Source of the DNA: a virus
Taxonomy: Duplodnaviria > Caudoviricetes
Direction: 5' to 3' (one strand)
Virus record (IMG/VR): IMGVR_UViG_3300003086_000115
Length of the DNA: 64,000 bases
Shown: in pieces, positions 860-58,641 of the stretch
Layout: each line of letters opens with the position of its first letter
How positions within the stretch are numbered: position 1 is the stretch's first letter
Translations under genes and position numbers: made by a program
Notes under the pieces: generated by a model
What the model was told of the DNA's origin: nothing
The model's input: only the letters and a program-made list of their open reading frames with translations
Database searches by the model: none

Positions 860-922
860 TATGCTCCAATAGGTGGAGCATTTATGCAGATACCCTCTGC
901 GTAAGTCATAGAACGACTTTTT
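860..922 (+). promoter_or_regulatory. Three-hairpin structured 5' leader after late promoter TAAATA (850-855)
   Basis: ATGCTCCA/TGGAGCAT, TTATGCAGA/TCTGCGTAA and AAGTC/GACTT stems directly before the AAGGAG RBS. Confidence 0.55.
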
Positions 923-939
923 TTAAGGAGTAGAAAAAA

Positions 940-1581
940 ATGGGTAGACCTTTAAATAAAAAACATTTCGGTAATACTAATGCTGATAACGTAGCTGGCG
1001 AAGGTATTGCAAGTATAGCAGTTAACGTTGCAGGTACTACATACGTAGCAGGCAATGCGGCAACAATTAGTGCACCGAATATAACAGGCGGAACACAAGC
1101 AGTAGCTGAAGTAGCAACTGTAGATGGTAGTGGTTTAATTTTAACAATTACAGTAACTACAGCAGGTAGTGGCTATACTTCGGCACCAACAGTGACATTT
1201 GCAGGTGGCGATGCCGCTGGTACAGGTACAGCAACAGTAGCAACAACAGCAACAGATGGAATAACATTTGAAGCATTTGTTACTGGTGGTAGTAATGTAA
1301 CAAACGGTGATATTATTTCACAAAAAGGTAGTAAAAGCTTTAGAGTAACTACTTCAGACGGAACTGAAAAGCTAATACTAAGTACATCAGTCCCAGTAGC
1401 GGGTAAAATGAGAATCAAAGGAACAGATTCTGCAGGCGGTACTTATTTTATTAGTAAAATCTCAGGAAGAACTTGTACAGTAACACAAGGTACAGGTACT
1501 CAGTTTGCAACAGATGCTAAAGTTGGTTGGAACTTAACAACTGCGGTATTAGACGAAAGTATTGTACTTGATAACGGTTAA
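940..1581 (+). CDS. Virion structural/decoration protein
   Basis: MGRPLNKK start, Thr/Gly/Ala-rich, GSGYTSAPTVTF motif common in phage structural proteins; late promoter, strong RBS and own terminator. Confidence 0.6.
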   Translation: MGRPLNKKHFGNTNADNVAGEGIASIAVNVAGTTYVAGNAATISAPNITGGTQAVAEVATVDGSGLILTITVTTAGSGYTSAPTVTFAGGDAAGTGTATVATTATDGITFEAFVTGGSNVTNGDIISQKGSKSFRVTTSDGTEKLILSTSVPVAGKMRIKGTDSAGGTYFISKISGRTCTVTQGTGTQFATDAKVGWNLTTAVLDESIVLDNG

Positions 1582-4918: not shown

Positions 4919-4992
4919 GTTTTTTATATAAAACCAAAAATTATATTCTGAGTTTTTAATAAATAAGTGTAAGCTTAATTAGGGAGGCTCAT

Positions 4993-7900
4993 ATGGCAAT
5001 AACAAGAATAAAGAATAATCAAGTAACCACAGCGAGTGGCACTGGCACCGGCGATCTAGGTATCGACGGCTCAACTAAATTATGGGATCAGTCAGTTACT
5101 GATGCTAAATTAGTTGACAATTTAACATATAACTCAAGCCTTACTGTTACAGGTAACTTAACAGTACAAGGTACAACTACAACGATCGATACAACTAATA
5201 CACTTGTTGAAGATCCAATTATGGTTTTAGCGTCAAACCAAACAGGAGCAGGATCAGCTGACATCGGTTTCATCGGTGAACGTGGTGATAATACAAACGT
5301 TGCGTTTGTGTGGGACGAAAGCGCAGACTCTTTTGTTGCGATAACAACTTCGGATGCTGATTCAAATACAACTGTTACAGTTACTGACTATGCTGATATG
5401 CATGTTGGTGGTATAACAGCAGATGATAATGCTTCAGTTGGTGGTACACTAGCAGTAACAGGTGCAAGTACATTAACTGGTAATACAGCAATTGCAGGTA
5501 CGTTAGCAGTAACTGGTGCTACAACAATGTCAACTGCTTCAACAAGCGGTGCGGCTACAATAGGTAGTACATTAGGTGTTACAGGTGCTACAACTTTATC
5601 AAGTACGTTAGCAGTAAGTGGTGCGTCTACATTGTCAAGTACTTTAAACGTAAGTGGACTTGCTTCACTAGACGGTGGTATTGATGCTGATGGTGCATTT
5701 ACTGTTGCTAGTGCATTTACTGTTGCTAATGGCAGTGGTAACGTTGTTACTACTGGTACTTTAGCAGTAACAGGTGCTACAACAATGTCAACTGCTTCGA
5801 CAAGTGGTGAAGCTACGTTAGATAGTGCTGTTATTACTAACAATGCTACAGTAGGTGGTACTTTAGGCGTAACTGGTGCAACTTCTATGTCAACTGCTTC
5901 AACAAGTGGTGCGGCAACATTAAACAGTGCTGTTATTACTAATGGTGCAACGATTGGTACTACACTAGCAGTAACTGGCGAGAGTACTTTAGCAAGTGCT
6001 AAAGTAAGTGATTTAACAAGTGGCCGTGTTGTTTTAGCAGGCACTGCAGGTGCTATTGAAGACTCAGGAAACTTAACGTTTAGTGGCTCTGCATTAGCAG
6101 TAACTGGTACTGCTTCAGTATCAAGTAATGCTACAGTAGGTGGTACATTAGGTGTTACAGGTGCAACTACAATAACTGGTTTGCTTACCGCAAATGCAGG
6201 TATAGCAGTTGATTCTGATAAGTTTACAGTTGCTGATTCTACAGGTAATACAGCAATTGCAGGTACAATACTACAGTAGGTGGTACGTTAGCAGTAACAG
6301 GTGCTACAACAATAAGTGGTGCGTTAATAGCAAACGGTGGAATTACAGCACCGAGCTTTACTTCTAGTGCTAATACAATCATTGGTGGTACACTAGCAGT
6401 AACAGGTGCAACAACACTAAATGGAGATGTTACTTTAGGTGATGCTTCTGGTGATGATGTTACTGTTACAGGTACAGCAACATTTGCACAAAGTATTGCA
6501 ATGAGTGGCGGCTTTGTTGTTGCGGCTTCGCAAACAATTAATGCAGGTAGTAACAAAATTAATAACGTTACAGATCCTACAGCGGCACAAGATGCGGCTA
6601 CTAAAGCGTATGTTGATAACGCTTCATCAGCTGGTTTCACATTAAGTGATGGCACTACTGGACAAGTTATCTCAGGTGGCGACACTTTCCTAGTATCAGG
6701 CACAGCAAACGAAGTAAATGTTGCTGTAAGTGCTACTGACACGTTAACAATTGGTTTACCAGATAACGTTACAGTTGCTGGTGTATTAACAGTTACTGGA
6801 AACGGTACTGTTGGTGGAACATTCGCAGTAACTGGCGCACAAACGTTTACTGGTGCTACAACAATGTCAAGTAATGCTACAGTTGGTGGTACTTTACAAG
6901 TGAGTGGTGATACAACGTTAGATGGTAACTTAACAGTTAACGGTACAACTACTACGGTGAATTCAACTACAGTAAGTATTGATGATCCAATCTTTAACTT
7001 GGGTGGTGATACTGCTCCAAGTTCAGATGATAACTTAGACCGTGGTGTGATATTCCAATATCACAATGGTTCAGCGGCAAAGAAAGGTTTCTTTGGTATG
7101 GACGACAGTGCTTCTGAATTCGTTTACATCGCAGATGCAACAGATACTGCTTCAGTAATGAGTGGTTCTTTAGGTAACATGGCAATGGGTGGTTCACGTA
7201 ATACTGGAAACTCAACTATTGGCGGCACAAGCACAGTAACAGGTACAAGTACACTAACAGGTGCAGTAACTATGATAGCTTCGGCTACAATAGGAACTAC
7301 ATTAGGTGTTACAGGTGCTACAACTTTATCAAGTACGTTAGCAGTAGCAGGTGCAAGTACATTAACTGGTAATACTACAGTAGGTGGTACATTAGGTGTT
7401 ACAGGTGCTACGACGATGTCAAGTGCTAAAGTAAGTGATTTAACACCTGGACGTGTTGTTTTAGCAGGTACTGCAGGTGAAATTGAAGACTCAGGAAACT
7501 TAACGTTTGATGGATCTACACTAGCAGTAACAGGTTCTGCTTCAGTATCAATTAATGCTACAATTGGTGGTACGTTAGCAGTAACAGGTGCTACAACAAT
7601 AAGTGGTTTGCTTAACGCAAATGCAGGTATAGCAGTTGATTCTAATAAGTTTACAGTTGCTGATTCTACAGGTAATACAGCAATTGCAGGTACACTAGCA
7701 GTAACTGGTGCAACTTCTATGTCAACTGCTTCAACCTAATAGTGCTACAGTAGGAACTACATTAGGTGTTACAGGTGCTACAACTTTATCAAGTACGTTA
7801 GCAGTAAGTGGTGCTACCGGTGTTGATGGTGACTTTGATATTGCTACAAACAAGTTTACAGTAGCAAGTGCTTCAGGTAATACAGCAATTGCAGGTACGT

Positions 7901-22076: not shown

Positions 22077-22110
22077 GTTTTAACAAATTTATAGATAGGG
22101 AGTAGAACAA

Positions 22111-26216: not shown

Positions 26217-26259
26217 GTCAAAATACTTTTTTAACTAGACCATGTAAGGAGGTACTATA

Positions 26260-27207: not shown

Positions 27208-27311
27208 AAACTTAGTTACCTTAACCTGTATTTAATGGTATTTTTTTAAAGGCGGTATCGTCGCCTCTGCTTTAGCATAAATAATAGTAACTTTAACAAG
27301 GGAGTAAACAC

Positions 27312-34725: not shown

Positions 34726-34739
34726 CATAAATATGGAAT

Positions 34740-46252: not shown

Positions 46253-46936
46253 ATGATTAGAATGTTTATAGGGTATGACAGGGATATACCTGTTATATAC
46301 CATGCGCTATGTCACAGTGTAATACGACATAGTTCAGAACCAGTATCGTTTACTCCAATAGCAAGGCATCATGTTAGTGATGTGTACACAAAGCCGACAT
46401 CAGATATAGAAGCTACAGAGTTTAGTATGACCCGATTCCTTACCCCGTACCTATCTAATTATGAAGGGTGGTCTATTTTTACTGATAATGATATGATAGT
46501 TACAGCAGATATAGCTGAGCTATGGGCTCTCAGAGATGATAAGTACGCCGTAATGTGTACTAAGCATGACTACACAGTGTCAACAGCAACAAAGTTTCTA
46601 AATAGAAAACAAACAGCGTATCAGAAGAAGAATTGGTCTAGTGTTATGATGTTTAATAATGCTAGATGCAAAGCACTAACACCTGACGTAGTAAACACAG
46701 AGTCGGGGTTATTTTTGCACCAGTTTAAGTGGTTAGAAGATGATAGTTTAATAGGTGATATACCATTAGAATGGAACTTCTTAGTAGATGAGATAGCGAA
46801 GCCAGAAACCATACCTAAACTAATACATTACACATTGGGTGGTCCTTACTTTAACGACTATATGGATACCCAATACGCAAGCGAATGGCTTAAAGAATAT
46901 AAACTAATGAATAACGCCGCACAGGTAAAAAACTAG
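46253..46936 (+). CDS. GT-A (GT8-like) glycosyltransferase
   Basis: FIGYD, TEFSMTRFLTP, F.DND, KNWSSVMMFN, LHQFKW, IHYT.GGP. Confidence 0.8.
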   Translation: MIRMFIGYDRDIPVIYHALCHSVIRHSSEPVSFTPIARHHVSDVYTKPTSDIEATEFSMTRFLTPYLSNYEGWSIFTDNDMIVTADIAELWALRDDKYAVMCTKHDYTVSTATKFLNRKQTAYQKKNWSSVMMFNNARCKALTPDVVNTESGLFLHQFKWLEDDSLIGDIPLEWNFLVDEIAKPETIPKLIHYTLGGPYFNDYMDTQYASEWLKEYKLMNNAAQVKN

Positions 46937-46944
46937 ACGGTATT

Positions 46945-47934
46945 ATGATAGATTACAAGGAATACACGAATCGTCACGAAGAATGGAAGAACTTAGGACT
47001 AGATAAATTAAAGTGTGCTTTATGGTATATAGACTATGAGATCGAATCATTTAGCGGATCGAGAATTGCACCCCATAATACTAGTCTTCATTGTATATCA
47101 ATTGATTATTTAAAAACCAAACAATGTTGGAATATTAGTCCTTATATCTTTATAGTGGATGTAGAAGGGAATTCTTCGCATTGGGTAAATTATAAAGATA
47201 CTATATATGTATGGGATGCCTCTTTCTTAGATAGTAAACAGTTTACTCCTTATTTTTGGTGGATGAACGAAACTGCTAGAGTAGAGAAAAGTGTAAATTA
47301 CGCAAGCCGATTAATTCCGTGTAATAATAATTCAAAAACATTTGACTGTTTGTTAGGGAGCAAACACACCCATAGAGATTACATCTACAATGCGTTAAAG
47401 GATAATCCAGCTGTCTTGCTCACCTATTTCGGGGCTGATAATAAGTGGATTAAAGGTAACGAAAATGATAATTTTGTTGAGTGGGATTCATCTGAACAAA
47501 GAATCTACAAAGGTAAGAACGTTACAGTTAATATTAGTTGCTTTATTCCTTGGCAGATTTACAATAAGACTTGGTTTAGTATTATTGCTGAGACTGATCC
47601 TAATAGAACATTTCTTACAGAAAAGACAGCAAAGCCAATAATGGCTAGAAGGTTGTTTATTACAATTGGTGCTAAAGGAATGCTGAAAGGGTTAAGAGGT
47701 ATAGGATACAAAACGTTTGATACTGTAATAGATGAGAGTTATGATGAAGAAGACGATGACCAAAAAAGATGGGATATGGCTATTCAGCAAGTTAGGTACC
47801 TATGTACTAAAGATCTGTGTCTAATAACTAAGGAAATAGAAGATATTACATTGCATAATAAGAAATGTTTAATCGAGTATGCTGAAGATAACCATCTTTC
47901 GAATCAGATTAGGGAAATAGTAGGAACAAGTTGA
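46945..47934 (+). CDS. Putative glycosyltransferase-like protein (TEKT family, copy 2)
   Basis: SIIAET...FLTEKTAKP...GYKTF..VIDESYD. Confidence 0.55.
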   Translation: MIDYKEYTNRHEEWKNLGLDKLKCALWYIDYEIESFSGSRIAPHNTSLHCISIDYLKTKQCWNISPYIFIVDVEGNSSHWVNYKDTIYVWDASFLDSKQFTPYFWWMNETARVEKSVNYASRLIPCNNNSKTFDCLLGSKHTHRDYIYNALKDNPAVLLTYFGADNKWIKGNENDNFVEWDSSEQRIYKGKNVTVNISCFIPWQIYNKTWFSIIAETDPNRTFLTEKTAKPIMARRLFITIGAKGMLKGLRGIGYKTFDTVIDESYDEEDDDQKRWDMAIQQVRYLCTKDLCLITKEIEDITLHNKKCLIEYAEDNHLSNQIREIVGTS

Positions 47935-47959
47935 CACACTTCTTCACCGATGTTATAAT
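47931..47959 (+). promoter_or_regulatory. Consensus sigma70 early promoter with extended -10
   Basis: TTGACA-N17-TATAAT, with TG-N before the -10. Confidence 0.9.
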
Positions 47960-47990
47960 AGTGGTACTTTAACAATAAAGGGAGTTAGGG

Positions 47991-48992
47991 ATGAAGGTAA
48001 AGGTATTCAATGGCCATTACGGCAAAAAATCAGTAAACGGTGTTACATTCGAAGCACTAAGTGAACCAGCGCACGGTAAAGATGGATATTACATTAGTGT
48101 AAAGCCAAATAAAACAGTCGGCAATCTAGCATGTAAGAGAATTAGAATTAAACTTACTAGCATAGATGATGTTAAGCACTTAGGTAAAAAGCCTACAGTA
48201 AACGAATATAAAGAAACAGATTCTCAAGTTACTGAGCGCATCACAGAGCGGTTTGATATCTTAACAGAAATGACTAAGGCCGCTATTGCAACAGACGTTA
48301 AAGCAATGATTGTATCAGGTCCTCCGGGTATTGGTAAGTCGTACGGCGTAGAAAAAGAATTAGAAAAAGCGAGCATGTTTGATGTAATTGCAAATACTGC
48401 CCCAAAATACGAAGTAGTTAAAGGCGCAATGACTGCACTAGGTTTATACTCAAAACTATTTCAACATTCGGGAAACGGTAATGTAATTGTATTTGATGAC
48501 TGTGATGTTGTCCTACAAGACGATTTGAGTTTAAACTTACTTAAAGCGGCGCTAGACAGCGGTAGAAAACGTACTGTTTGTTGGAATGCAGATAGTAACT
48601 TACTGCGTAGAGAAGGAATTCCAAACAGTTTTGATTTTATGGGATCAGTGATCTTTATTACTAACCTGAAGTTTGAAAATGTTAAGAGTAAGAAATTACA
48701 AGATCATTTAGCGGCATTACAGAGTAGATGTCACTACTTAGATTTAACATTAGATACTATGCGTGATAAACACTTGCGCGTTAAACAGATTTATGCAACA
48801 GGTGAACTGTTTAGGAATTATAGATTTGGTGAAGAAATTGGAGATGAAATAATTAAGTTCATGGGAGATAATAAAGATGAACTACGTGAGATGAGTCTAA
48901 GGATGGCATTAAAGATTGCAGACTTAGTCTTAGTTAGTAAAGACAGATGGAAAGTACTTGCTAAGAACACGTGTATGAAAAATAGTTTTTAA
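47991..48992 (+). CDS. AAA+ ATPase of unknown function
   Basis: GPPGIGKS, VIVFDDCD, IFITN sensor 1, ALQSR arginine finger, SLR sensor 2. Confidence 0.85.
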   Translation: MKVKVFNGHYGKKSVNGVTFEALSEPAHGKDGYYISVKPNKTVGNLACKRIRIKLTSIDDVKHLGKKPTVNEYKETDSQVTERITERFDILTEMTKAAIATDVKAMIVSGPPGIGKSYGVEKELEKASMFDVIANTAPKYEVVKGAMTALGLYSKLFQHSGNGNVIVFDDCDVVLQDDLSLNLLKAALDSGRKRTVCWNADSNLLRREGIPNSFDFMGSVIFITNLKFENVKSKKLQDHLAALQSRCHYLDLTLDTMRDKHLRVKQIYATGELFRNYRFGEEIGDEIIKFMGDNKDELREMSLRMALKIADLVLVSKDRWKVLAKNTCMKNSF

Positions 48993-48999
48993 AGAGTTC

Positions 49000-49099
49000 G
49001 TTAGATGCTTGTGTTGCTCCCTTGAGACACTCCCTAAATAAGCATTTAACAACACCCGGGTTACAAGACATGTTTCCTTTATTGTTAGTCTTGTAACCC
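49000..49099 (+). ncRNA. Two-domain structured RNA with anti-Shine-Dalgarno loops
   Basis: Stems 49000-49010/49040-49050 and 49058-49069/49088-49099; G-U pairs favour the + strand. Confidence 0.65.
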
Positions 49100-49123
49100 A
49101 CCCTATTAAAGAGAAGAGGTAAT

Positions 49124-50581
49124 GTGAAAGCAATTATAATTATACAAGACGAAGTTAACTGTGCTGTAAAAGGCGTAGAGTTAGACGTTCGTAAGAAACT
49201 TGTAGGTATGTTTAAATATGACATCCCAGGAGCAAGATATATGCCTGCTTATCGTCTAGGACGTTGGGACGGGACTGTATCTTTTTTCAACTTAGGCGGC
49301 ACTACGTTTGTTAATTTACTGCCTAAAATTATTCCTGTTCTAATTGCTAATCATTATGAAATTGAATTAGATGATAAACGAACACAGACGACACCGATAG
49401 ATATAGCACCTATTGATGATAGTACATTTCGACATATTAAATGGCCCGAGAAGCATGTAGTTGCAGGCGAGCCAATTATTCTACGTGATTATCAAGTTGA
49501 GATTGTTAATAATTTCTTGGAAAATCCGCAATGCTTACAAGAAATAGCTACAGGTGCAGGTAAGACATTAGTTACAGCGGCACTAAGTGAACGTGCAGAA
49601 GCATACGGCAGAAGTATAGTAATTGTACCTAACAAGAGTTTAGTAGTACAAACAGAAGCAGACTATATTAACATGCAATTAGATGTAGGTGTGTATTTCG
49701 GCGATAGAAAAGACATAGGCAAAACACATACTATTTGTACATGGCAAAGTCTTAACATGTTAATGAAGAATACTAAGAAAGGTGTAGCAGAGATTACAAT
49801 ACACGACTTCTTAGAAGATGTCATATGTGTTATTGTTGATGAAGTGCATAGTGCTAAAGCAGATGCACTTAAAACATTACTAACAGGACCAATGCGTAAC
49901 ATTCCCTTACGTTGGGGACTAACAGGTACAGTACCTAAAGAAGAGTTTGAGTTTGCTTCATTAAGAGTAAGCCTAGGCGAAGTTATTAATAAGGTATCAG
50001 CAAGTGAATTGCAAGACAAAGGTGTGCTTGCTAATTGTCATGTGAATATTGTGCAGTTACTTGATCACGCTCAGCACAGTAACTATCAAAGTGAGTTGAA
50101 GTACTTATTAAGTGACCCTGATCGTTTGGATACGATGGCAAATCTTGTACGTAAGGCTAATGAAACTGGCAACACTCTTGTGCTTGTAGACCGTGTACAA
50201 GCAGGCAAAGATTTAGTAGAACGCTTAGGAGAAGATGCTGTGTTTGTTAGTGGTGCAACTAAAGGAAAAGACAGACAAGAGCAGTATGATGAAGTTGCAG
50301 ATTCAAGTAACAAGATTATTGTAGCAACGTACGGTGTTGCGGCAGTAGGTATTAATATCCCTAGGATATTTAACTTAATGCTTATTGAACCCGGTAAGTC
50401 TTTTGTGCGAGTAATACAGTCTATAGGACGAGGTATTCGTAAAGCACAAGATAAAGACGAAGTACAAATATGGGATATTACTAGTAGCTGTAAGTTTGCT
50501 AAACGGCATTTAACTAAACGTAAGAAATTCTATAAAGAAGCAGAGTACCCTTTCTCGTTAGAGAAATTAGAATGGAAGTAA
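49124..50581 (+). CDS. uvsW: SF2 DNA helicase UvsW
   Basis: G.WDG, LRDYQ, ATGAGKT, DEVH, GLTGT, GINIP, QSIGRG.R. Confidence 0.92.
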   Translation: MKAIIIIQDEVNCAVKGVELDVRKKLVGMFKYDIPGARYMPAYRLGRWDGTVSFFNLGGTTFVNLLPKIIPVLIANHYEIELDDKRTQTTPIDIAPIDDSTFRHIKWPEKHVVAGEPIILRDYQVEIVNNFLENPQCLQEIATGAGKTLVTAALSERAEAYGRSIVIVPNKSLVVQTEADYINMQLDVGVYFGDRKDIGKTHTICTWQSLNMLMKNTKKGVAEITIHDFLEDVICVIVDEVHSAKADALKTLLTGPMRNIPLRWGLTGTVPKEEFEFASLRVSLGEVINKVSASELQDKGVLANCHVNIVQLLDHAQHSNYQSELKYLLSDPDRLDTMANLVRKANETGNTLVLVDRVQAGKDLVERLGEDAVFVSGATKGKDRQEQYDEVADSSNKIIVATYGVAAVGINIPRIFNLMLIEPGKSFVRVIQSIGRGIRKAQDKDEVQIWDITSSCKFAKRHLTKRKKFYKEAEYPFSLEKLEWK

Positions 50582-52526: not shown

Positions 52527-52973
52527 ATGGCACAAAAGTTAGATATATTTAAAGTATTACGAGCAGTTGATAAGAAGGATTATGCATTCTACGACACGTT
52601 AACAGACGAAGAGAAGAAAGGTTTTACGGCATTTTTAGGGTTAAAGTGGGGTGCAAGCGTAGAAGGTAACCAAACGATACAGCACTACTACCTAGCAAGT
52701 ATGAACCATCATGCAAACAAACACTTGTTCAACATTAGTAAACACCCTAAGTTACAGTGGCTAACATTAGCGGCAGGCAGTCCTAATTTTGGACAGCAAC
52801 GACATAATTGGATAAAAGGTAAAAAGAAAATATCTACTAAAAAACAAGACGATATTAAGAAAGAATTGATAATGTTATATCCATCCTACAAAGAAGATGA
52901 GATAGAATTGCTAAGTACAATGGTTACAAAAAAAGAGATAAAGCAGTATGCTAAAGACAGCGGTCAAGTCTAA
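52527..52973 (+). CDS. Clamp-loader small subunit-like (gp62-like)
   Basis: E.K.F..F...KW.....MN..........KLQW.L pattern. Confidence 0.5.
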   Translation: MAQKLDIFKVLRAVDKKDYAFYDTLTDEEKKGFTAFLGLKWGASVEGNQTIQHYYLASMNHHANKHLFNISKHPKLQWLTLAAGSPNFGQQRHNWIKGKKKISTKKQDDIKKELIMLYPSYKEDEIELLSTMVTKKEIKQYAKDSGQV

Positions 52974-58251: not shown

Positions 58252-58260
58252 AGTATAATA

Positions 58261-58604
58261 GTTGATATGCAGTTAGTTGTTACCGACTAATGTTAGGTGT
58301 TGGTTGTCGCTTACATGCATGATATCAACCCTAAAGTGACGGTCCTTTATTACTTTAGAGTTATTCGGTAATACTGAAACGTATTATGTTAACGGATAGC
58401 GATACGTAGCTTTGCGTATTTCCAAAATTAAAGTAGTGTCTAAGACTTCTAGTCTAATTGACTATGCTTAGAAAAGGTGGCGAGGTATTCCGTAACATAA
58501 CGCCATGCACAAAAGTATTATGTTAGCGCAGGGTTTTTTAGTAATAGTTTTGTTTATACCCTCATAACTTGCTAGTCCGACAGGTGTGCGATTCGGACTT
58601 TTCA
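58261..58604 (+). ncRNA. Candidate ~345-nt structured non-coding RNA
   Basis: Largest intergenic gap in the window; at least nine stems with G-U pairs on +; TTGATG-N16-TATAAT upstream and hairpin+U run at the end. Confidence 0.65.
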
Positions 58605-58641
58605 TTCTAACCTAGCATTATTTTTACTATATAATAATATA

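Follow-up and report, generated by a model that had tools for sequence, protein, structure and literature searches.

A conserved intercistronic RNA displaying anti-Shine-Dalgarno motifs in uncultured marine jumbo T4-like phages

We analysed a 64,000-nucleotide (nt) stretch of phage DNA, IMG/VR record IMGVR_UViG_3300003086_000115, hereafter the window. Positions 48995-49113 lie between a gene for an AAA-like ATPase (the AAA gene) and a gene for a UvsW-like helicase. They are a conserved structured RNA, supported by covariation and encoded on the + strand. The element is a previously undescribed RNA family of uncultured marine jumbo T4-like phages, present in this uncultured jumbo phage and about 15 relatives. 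Its single strands display CU-rich motifs complementary to Shine-Dalgarno (SD) sequences. The element probably regulates translation. From sequence comparison, it may act from between two cistrons as an anti-SD RNA, by pairing with ribosome-binding sites (RBSs) of the AGGGAG type. We put the probability of this reading at roughly 40%.

A conserved RNA structure after the ATPase gene

A sequence-only reading of the window had proposed a structured RNA directly 3' of the AAA stop codon. The coordinates, stems and complementarities that it listed were all found in the sequence; only the 3' arm of the first stem, which is 49040-49050, had been misplaced by one position. The components are as follows.

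48995-49113 (+ strand): whole conserved intercistronic structured RNA, by the extent of the covariance-model match
48996-49053 (+ strand): domain 1, in which helix P1 encloses hairpin P1a, plus joining strand J
49058-49069 with 49088-49099 (+ strand): P3, a perfect stem of 12 base pairs (bp) with an 18-nt loop
49100-49107 (+ strand): conserved 3' tail ACC(C/U)UAUU, nearly invariant as CA-CC(C/U)UAUU

P1 pairs 49000-49010 with 49040-49050 (11 bp, one G-U) and is extended by 3 bp (48996-98 with 49051-53). Inside P1 is the small hairpin P1a (49011-15 with 49026-30), with CUCCCU in its loop (49017-49022). Strand J carries CUCCCUAA at 49030-49037 and the P3 loop contains TTCCTTTATTGTTA, that is UUCCUUUAUUGUUA, at 49074-49087. 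The order of parts in the family is P1 around P1a, an optional hairpin P2, P3 and the conserved tail. The major clade has P2; the window and its subclade do not. The minimum free energy of 48995-49113 is -37.2 kcal/mol, compared with -24.5 +/- 3.2 for shuffled sequences (z = -4.0), and none of 200 shuffles was as stable. Three further candidates were rejected. Pairings between the 5' end and the tail (a closing helix) and between the tail and J were inspected by eye and are not conserved. The same is true of a mini-ORF (open reading frame) in domain 1, reading MLVLLP* in the window and MCYCSL* in L001. An internal sigma70 -10 box (TATAAT) in the P1a of major-clade members was judged incidental, as it is not kept in the window or in the L004, L007, L107 and L099 types.

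Relatives of the locus were recovered by protein-guided searches of IMG/VR, JGI metagenomes and a large protein collection. We built a covariance model (R1) from seven relatives, leaving out the window. Under this model the window scores 54.5 bits (E about 5e-11), and the two relatives closest to it score 43-44 bits. The alignment of 15 distinct sequences has 476 pair cells, of which 98.7% hold standard pairs. Compensatory changes, on both sides, occur in 21 of 35 pairs; in P3 the figure is 9 of 11 modelled pairs. No shuffle of 500 attained any of the five measures used, and sliding the 3' partners by 1-3 columns reduced pairing to 34-48%. Fitting the alignment to the model favours the pairing score; yet the window and its subclade, which were outside the training set, still pair. 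The alignment holds 28 G-U cells but only 2 A-C cells. Hence, the structure is on the + strand, the strand of the genes. Folding stability and covariation together bear out the proposed structured RNA.

Rfam 15 gave no match to window positions 47000-50000 at E up to 10, and nothing at the element in seven relatives. Searching a phage collection by DNA with the locus, IMG/VR with the exact hairpin pattern, and GTDB genomes with the AAA protein returned nothing. A window-type motif pattern recovered, as true members from IMG/VR, only the L004, L115 and L138 contigs. We found no description in the literature of a uvsW-leader RNA or of a relevant phage anti-SD small RNA (sRNA). The element is single-copy per contig, and no second copy was found in the contigs of three relatives. 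It is confined to a marine and hydrothermal-vent clade in which the AAA protein is at least about 61% identical to that of the window. More distant relatives instead have an ORF coupled to the helicase gene, or a different hairpin set ending in a canonical terminator. In one such related lineage a different three-hairpin RNA lies 3' of the AAA gene (L030:3775-3890 and L165:2375-2500). Its hairpins have a GAAA tetraloop, a loop containing GCUCCUG and, last, a canonical GC-rich terminator with a U tract. The model detected no homology between it and the element. In L165 it is followed by TATAAT-N7-ATG, implying a leaderless helicase mRNA.

Anti-SD motifs and their complementarity to ribosome-binding sites

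The unpaired columns of the alignment are 64% pyrimidine and 11% G. In J, CUCCCUAA is invariant (15 of 15 sequences). In the major clade J reads CCUCCCUAA and thereby includes CCUCC, the universal anti-SD core. CUCCCU is the usual motif of the P1a loop and UUCCUUU that of the P3 loop, and large P2 loops often hold another C(C/U)CCUU copy. Each element thus has two to four motifs resembling the anti-SD 3' end of 16S rRNA, in the P1a loop, J, the P3 loop and the tail (CACCYUAUU). Multiple exposed UCCC/CUCCC motifs are the mark of UCCC-motif sRNAs of the LhrC/RsaE kind. In the predicted ensemble J is unpaired with a probability of 0.90, the P3 loop with one of 0.93 and the P1a loop with one of 0.64. 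Hence, the display of anti-SD sequences noticed earlier is conserved in relatives and predicted to be accessible.

The motif is also unevenly placed. The window has 9 copies of CTCCCT against 13.6 expected. Six of the nine are reverse complements (AGGGAG on the + strand), and four of these six are the SDs of the AAA, sheath and tube genes and of the gene at 4993, which encodes a fibre-like protein. One + strand copy falls where genes run on the opposite strand. As sense RNA, CTCCCT occurs only twice in 64 kb, both times within the 119-nt element. The element therefore concentrates a motif otherwise avoided by phage mRNAs. Repeats of the J motif elsewhere in the window do not exceed chance, and there is one exact copy only.

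The transcript on which the element lies has these features.

47931-47959 (+ strand): sigma70-type early promoter, TTGACA-17-TATAAT with TG; 12 of 12 matches and an extended -10
47966-47990 (+ strand): AAA leader and translation initiation region, with purine blocks AAAGGGAGU (SD, 47977-47985) and UUAGGGA (47986-47992)
47991-48992 (+ strand): P-loop/AAA-like ATPase gene, function unassigned; phrog_1250, conserved in T4-like and jumbo phages
49124-50581 (+ strand): UvsW-like SF2 helicase gene, GTG start; weak SD AAGAGG at 49114-49119

The sequence-only reading was right that the unit lies behind a consensus sigma70 promoter. Judged from its sequence, this promoter serves the AAA gene and, with no intervening terminator, the element and the helicase gene. 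There are no terminator-like sites in 46500-50500, including the 131-nt spacer between the AAA and helicase genes.

If the element is an anti-SD RNA, its CU-rich single strands would base-pair with AGGGAG-type SD regions and lower ribosome loading. The first candidate target would be the initiation region of the co-transcribed ATPase gene, since this is essentially the sole AGGGAG on the transcript carrying the element. It could be reached by fold-back on the same mRNA or after processing. Late structural mRNAs sharing the SD, those for sheath, tube and the fibre-like protein, would be further possible targets.

Several observations are consistent with the AAA gene as first target. No other early gene has the strong AGGGAG SD, and in the window the AAA leader holds the sole AGGGAG on its mRNA. 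The AAA initiation region comes 1st of 77 for the P3 loop, 3rd for the P1a loop and 5th for J. The SD reads (U)AGGGAG(UA) in 10 of 11 lineage transcripts examined, and is nearly the sole such site on the mRNA. For most major-clade members, the P1a loop and part of its stem (UUACUCCCUA) complement the AAA SD UAGGGAGUAA over 9-11 nt. Within the window's subclade, the P1a loop, J and the P3 loop match both purine blocks of the AAA initiation region. The leaders of some AAA genes are themselves predicted to be structured. In the major-clade relatives L001/L147, L003, L099 and L123 (for example, L147:1550-1597) the mRNA would begin with a hairpin, CCCUACA-loop-UGUAGGG, that lies directly after an extended -10 promoter (TGTATAAT) and buries part of the AAA SD. 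Leaders of the L008 type have a different hairpin, with the SD free.

One match in the window joins the element to the AAA leader. In the P3 loop, TTCCTTTATTGTTA complements TAACAATAAAGGGA in the AAA leader (47970-47983) over 14 nt with one G-U. From this a fold-back lock on the ATPase gene had been proposed. The pairing is indeed unusual in the window: it was equalled by 1 of 150 shuffles with the CTCCCT core fixed, and by 4 of 2000 shuffles of the whole loop. It is kept in the L239 type (87% AAA protein identity; -20.0 kcal/mol, 5 of 2000 shuffles), where the leader is identical to that of the window and the 5' part of the loop is altered, one change turning the G-U into G-C. In these two cases the pairing spans 13-16 nt. 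The L239 type shares ancestry with the window and so is not an independent case.

A number of results weigh against an anti-SD role or narrow it. In the L242/L004 type (85% AAA protein identity) the P3 loop and the leader have both diverged, and their pairing is unexceptional (-12.4 kcal/mol, 321 of 2000 shuffles). The long pairing is absent from eight major-clade lineages, where cognate loops and leaders pair no better (-8.7 kcal/mol) than non-cognate ones (-8.9 kcal/mol). The covariation of the P3 loop with the AAA RBS that a lock would predict was therefore not found. The lock is at best a young, lineage-specific feature. A 14-bp helix within an 18-nt loop would also be sterically awkward. 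More generally, the motifs do not covary with any target; both they and the SDs are nearly invariant. In L095 the AAA SD is AAGGA, yet the motifs are kept, and in L007 the P1a loop is degenerate. No consistent alternative target of the P3 loop was found in the loci of eight relatives.

The matches to structural genes fare similarly. As described earlier, TTGCTCCCTTG (49014-49024) pairs with the tube RBS CAAGGGAGTAA (27297-27307), and ACTCCCTAA (49029-49037) pairs with the sheath RBS TAGGGAGT (22096-22103) and the fibre-like RBS TTAGGGAG (4979-4986). The computed energies are -17.9 kcal/mol for tube and -13.2 kcal/mol for both sheath and the 4993 gene. We fixed the CTCCCT core and shuffled the flanks. 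The best RBS energy was equalled by 27 of 150 shuffles for the P1a loop and by 128 of 150 for J. Hence, the tube and sheath matches reflect only an anti-SD core meeting an SD, and complementarity beyond the 6-nt core does not exceed chance for structural genes. Targeting of the tube, sheath and fibre RBSs stands as a set of real matches that do no better than the core alone.

The position of the element also counts against a tie to the AAA gene. SGNH/GDSL-like ORFs, which have GCSxT ... HP motifs and no Pfam match, come and go on either side of the element.

L007:4037-4831, SGNH/GDSL-like ORF
L095:2897-3685, SGNH/GDSL-like ORF
L172:2501-3268, SGNH/GDSL-like ORF
L152:2846-3544, SGNH/GDSL-like ORF
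L008:4217-4262, SGNH/GDSL-like ORF remnant

In L007 and L095 a 0.8-kb ORF of this kind separates the AAA gene from the element. In L152 it is 3' of the element and coupled to the helicase gene. L008 has a remnant of the latter ORF, comprising its first few and last ~25 bases. Judged from these arrangements, the position of the element tracks the AAA-to-helicase interval and not the AAA gene itself. The element is consequently not specifically an AAA 3' untranslated region (UTR), as had been supposed. Its release as a 3'-UTR-derived sRNA finds no support either. There is no conserved promoter before the element in either upstream context (the 3' end of the AAA gene or of the SGNH-like ORF), and no U-tract terminator follows, so that a discrete sRNA would have to arise by processing. 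Overall, what the sequence-only reading observed is confirmed, and its interpretation holds in part. The display of anti-SD motifs is genuine and conserved, while the lock and the structural targeting are unsupported as conserved features.

Competing explanations

The element could instead be a cis-acting leader for the next cistron, be it the helicase gene or an SGNH-like ORF coupled to it. As a standby platform for the ribosome or S1, an mRNA stabiliser or a processing site, placed 5' of an AU-rich and mostly SD-less start, it would set the helicase yield from the early transcript. Placement is constant: the 5' end of the element falls 0-6 nt past the upstream stop codon and its 3' end 4-46 nt short of the downstream start codon, and in 13 of 14 arrangements it is the helicase gene that follows. 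An SD is missing from most helicase genes of the major clade. In the window's subclade only, the tail is predicted to pair, weakly, with the helicase SD. Timing of this gene matters in T4, which expresses UvsW late and so avoids early unwinding of origin R-loops (PMC3016281). However, the P3 loop matches the downstream start region no better than shuffles do in 13 of 14 members, so that masking of the start codon by this loop was rejected. A leader role also leaves the invariant CUCCCUAA and the repeated anti-SD motifs unexplained, and distant relatives do without the element, via ORF coupling. We consider this explanation rather unlikely, at about one chance in four.

A further reading is that the element mimics the ribosome's tail. 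Its copies of a sequence resembling the 16S 3' end would outcompete ribosomes for AGGGAG/GGAG SDs, or soak up a factor that recognises the 16S tail. If so, translation would shift from SD-led initiation to the many SD-less or leaderless mRNAs of the phage; alternatively, the mimic would set the timing of the phage's own strong-SD genes. We think this improbable.

Action at the level of transcription is a little less probable again. The element would be a Rho-loading (rut-like) stretch that attenuates early read-through into uvsW, or a put-like RNA that modifies RNA polymerase. Positions 49028-49107 are among the strongest sense C>G windows in the 64 kb (C-G = +13; mean -3.7, standard deviation 5.3). 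The element is also an untranslated stretch, with an early gene on one side and a T4-late gene on the other. Its C-rich strands interleaved with hairpins recall rutA-boxB-rutB of phage lambda, in which C-rich strands likewise have interspersed hairpins, although this is a resemblance by analogy. Set against this, about half of the element is held in stable helices, and rut sites normally show little conservation of either sequence or structure, in contrast to the strong covariation here. The reading also needs a host that has Rho; a tRNA search for clues to the host found none. The second strongest sense C>G window is at 52669-52748 (+ strand; C 23, G 8), inside the coding sequence 52527-52973.

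Equally doubtful is a protein decoy, or sponge, in which the 16S-3'-end-like repeats (CCUCCCUAA, CACCUUAUU) would bind and deplete an RNA-binding factor, from host or phage, with a preference for pyrimidine-rich or anti-SD-like RNA. Examples would be S1, or else a toxin or ribonuclease attacking the 16S 3' end. One short motif made multivalent over loops and strands, including the P2 loops of some relatives, is a known layout for sponge RNAs, and the major-clade J motif holds the exact anti-SD core. However, no candidate protein was identified, and the element is single-copy with no strong promoter of its own.

Least credible is the mundane account, in which P3 is the AAA terminator and TAAATA (49035-49040) is the late promoter of uvsW. 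The late promoters of the window are [A/G]TAAATA, phage Aeh1 has a genuine late promoter that reads CTAAATA (PMC1524935), and the related L030, L165 and L066 have a canonical terminator 3' of the AAA gene. However, P3 does not fit an intrinsic terminator (GC-rich stem, short loop, adjoining U tract): its loop has 18 nt and the downstream sequence, ACCCUAUUAAAG, is not a U tract. Canonical terminators do occur at other sites in this phage, one of them near 26230. The promoter would moreover precede the supposed terminator. TAAATA becomes TAAGTA in 3 of 15 sequences (the L008, L011 and L152 types), with the P1 pairing kept as U-G. Of 24 TAAATA boxes 5-54 nt before starts in the window (TATAAATA-like, the T4-type late box), 2 have C before the box; the CTAAATA of the element lies 83 nt before the GTG. 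The covariation of P1 and P1a and the conserved CU motifs would also go unexplained. Hence, the possibility raised in the sequence-only reading, that a terminator and late promoter account for everything, probably does not hold.

Late promoters in the window sit either 5-6 nt (leaderless) or 13-54 nt before starts. The closer class, ahead of ATG starts, comprises boxes at 34728, 35557, 36574, 55735 and 63148 (+ strand) and 26079 (- strand), and includes the large terminase gene (36585). To judge from this spacing, such late genes would have leaderless or near-leaderless mRNAs. For sheath, tube and the 4993 gene, TAAATA is instead 27-34 nt upstream and is accompanied by a strong AGGGAG SD.

Related RNAs, locus context and significance

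As an anti-SD RNA, the element would have its closest parallels among UCCC- or CU-rich-motif sRNAs of low-GC bacteria: LhrC1-5 of Listeria, RNAIII, RsaE and SprD of Staphylococcus aureus, and FsrA and RoxS of Bacillus subtilis. Like LhrC-type sRNAs, it is G-poor and places CUCCC(U), complementary to SDs, in a hairpin loop, a single-stranded linker and the last hairpin loop; in LhrC each of three CU-rich sites was shown to bind an SD region (PMC4132741). The LhrC-type RNAs are bacterial and stand-alone, with their own promoter and U-tract terminator. In contrast, the element is intercistronic in a phage operon and neither signal was detected. It has no sequence or model similarity to them in Rfam, and its SD pairing is a matter of complementarity.

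Two systems resemble the element in cis. The C4 antisense RNA of phages P1 and P7 (immI operon) is phage-encoded, lies on the same transcript as its target and has exposed loops complementary to the ribosome-binding region of the operon. The element shares this layout. Unlike C4, which precedes its target and is excised by RNase P, it has its best candidate target 1.1 kb upstream, no processing signal is known for it and its extended complementarity is not conserved. As in hok/Sok fold-back, the leader and SD can form a 13-16-nt pairing with an element further 3' on the same mRNA, in the window and its nearest relative. Unlike the conserved, covarying fold-back of hok, this pairing is lost in the 85% AAA relative and absent from the major clade.

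The T4 genes e, soc, 49 and I-TevI offer a further parallel: an early read-through transcript with a structure before a T4-late gene and a TAAATA-like motif inside. The T4 hairpin sequesters the downstream RBS, whereas the element has no pairing with the downstream start beyond chance and its TAAATA is not invariant. Finally, the element resembles motifs that entered Rfam from aquatic phage metagenomes, such as freshwater-2 (RF02980), in being a conserved multi-hairpin intergenic RNA discovered by comparison; in sequence and architecture the two are unrelated. Freshwater-2 is a known cis-regulatory candidate motif from freshwater metagenomes. It is itself present in the window at 862-942 (+ strand), as the sole Rfam match in the whole window (61.5 bits; gathering score 49.9), with three hairpins and a U tract followed by the SD and AUG of the gene at 940. 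Another stretch, 58252-58641, is a 390-nt hairpin-rich gap with no ORF, before gene 58642 (TATAAT-N8-ATG); it has no CUCCCU and no Rfam match.

The genes around the element are T4-like. The AAA protein matches phrog_1250 (E = 4e-85) and, weakly, AAA_16. Its relatives are found in 1308 phage records, T4-like and jumbo, every one below 60% identity, and no relative was found in PDB. The helicase matches the Pfam families ResIII, DEAD and Helicase_C. Its top PDB match is T4 UvsW (2OCA, E = 6e-25, full length), and its nearest phage relatives are jumbo phages of 287-490 kb. In L123:6846-8115, and also in L107, L139 and L146, the helicase gene appears to have ~550 extra bases in its 5' third compared with that of the window, and tblastn matches only residues 237-485 as one piece. 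An intron, an intein or an inserted ORF could account for the extra bases. Genes for sheath, tube, large terminase, a gp32-like single-stranded DNA-binding protein and a DnaB-like helicase neighbour the locus and indicate a T4-like phage. The contigs of relatives (18-27 kb) have completeness ratings of 5-7%, pointing to genome sizes of roughly 370 kb.

Very few phage regulatory RNAs are understood, and almost none come from uncultured jumbo phages. The element is a covariation-supported candidate with a recognisable logic: repeated anti-SD motifs in an operon whose one early gene has a matching strong SD. Were it to prove a Rho-loading or leader element instead, it would still be a new RNA family for motif catalogues. 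If its motifs do pair with RBSs, the principle of CU-rich 'UCCC' sRNAs, so far Gram-positive, would extend to an RNA embedded in a phage operon. The element would then give a handle on the tuning of early replication and recombination genes, such as UvsW, in T4-like jumbo phages.

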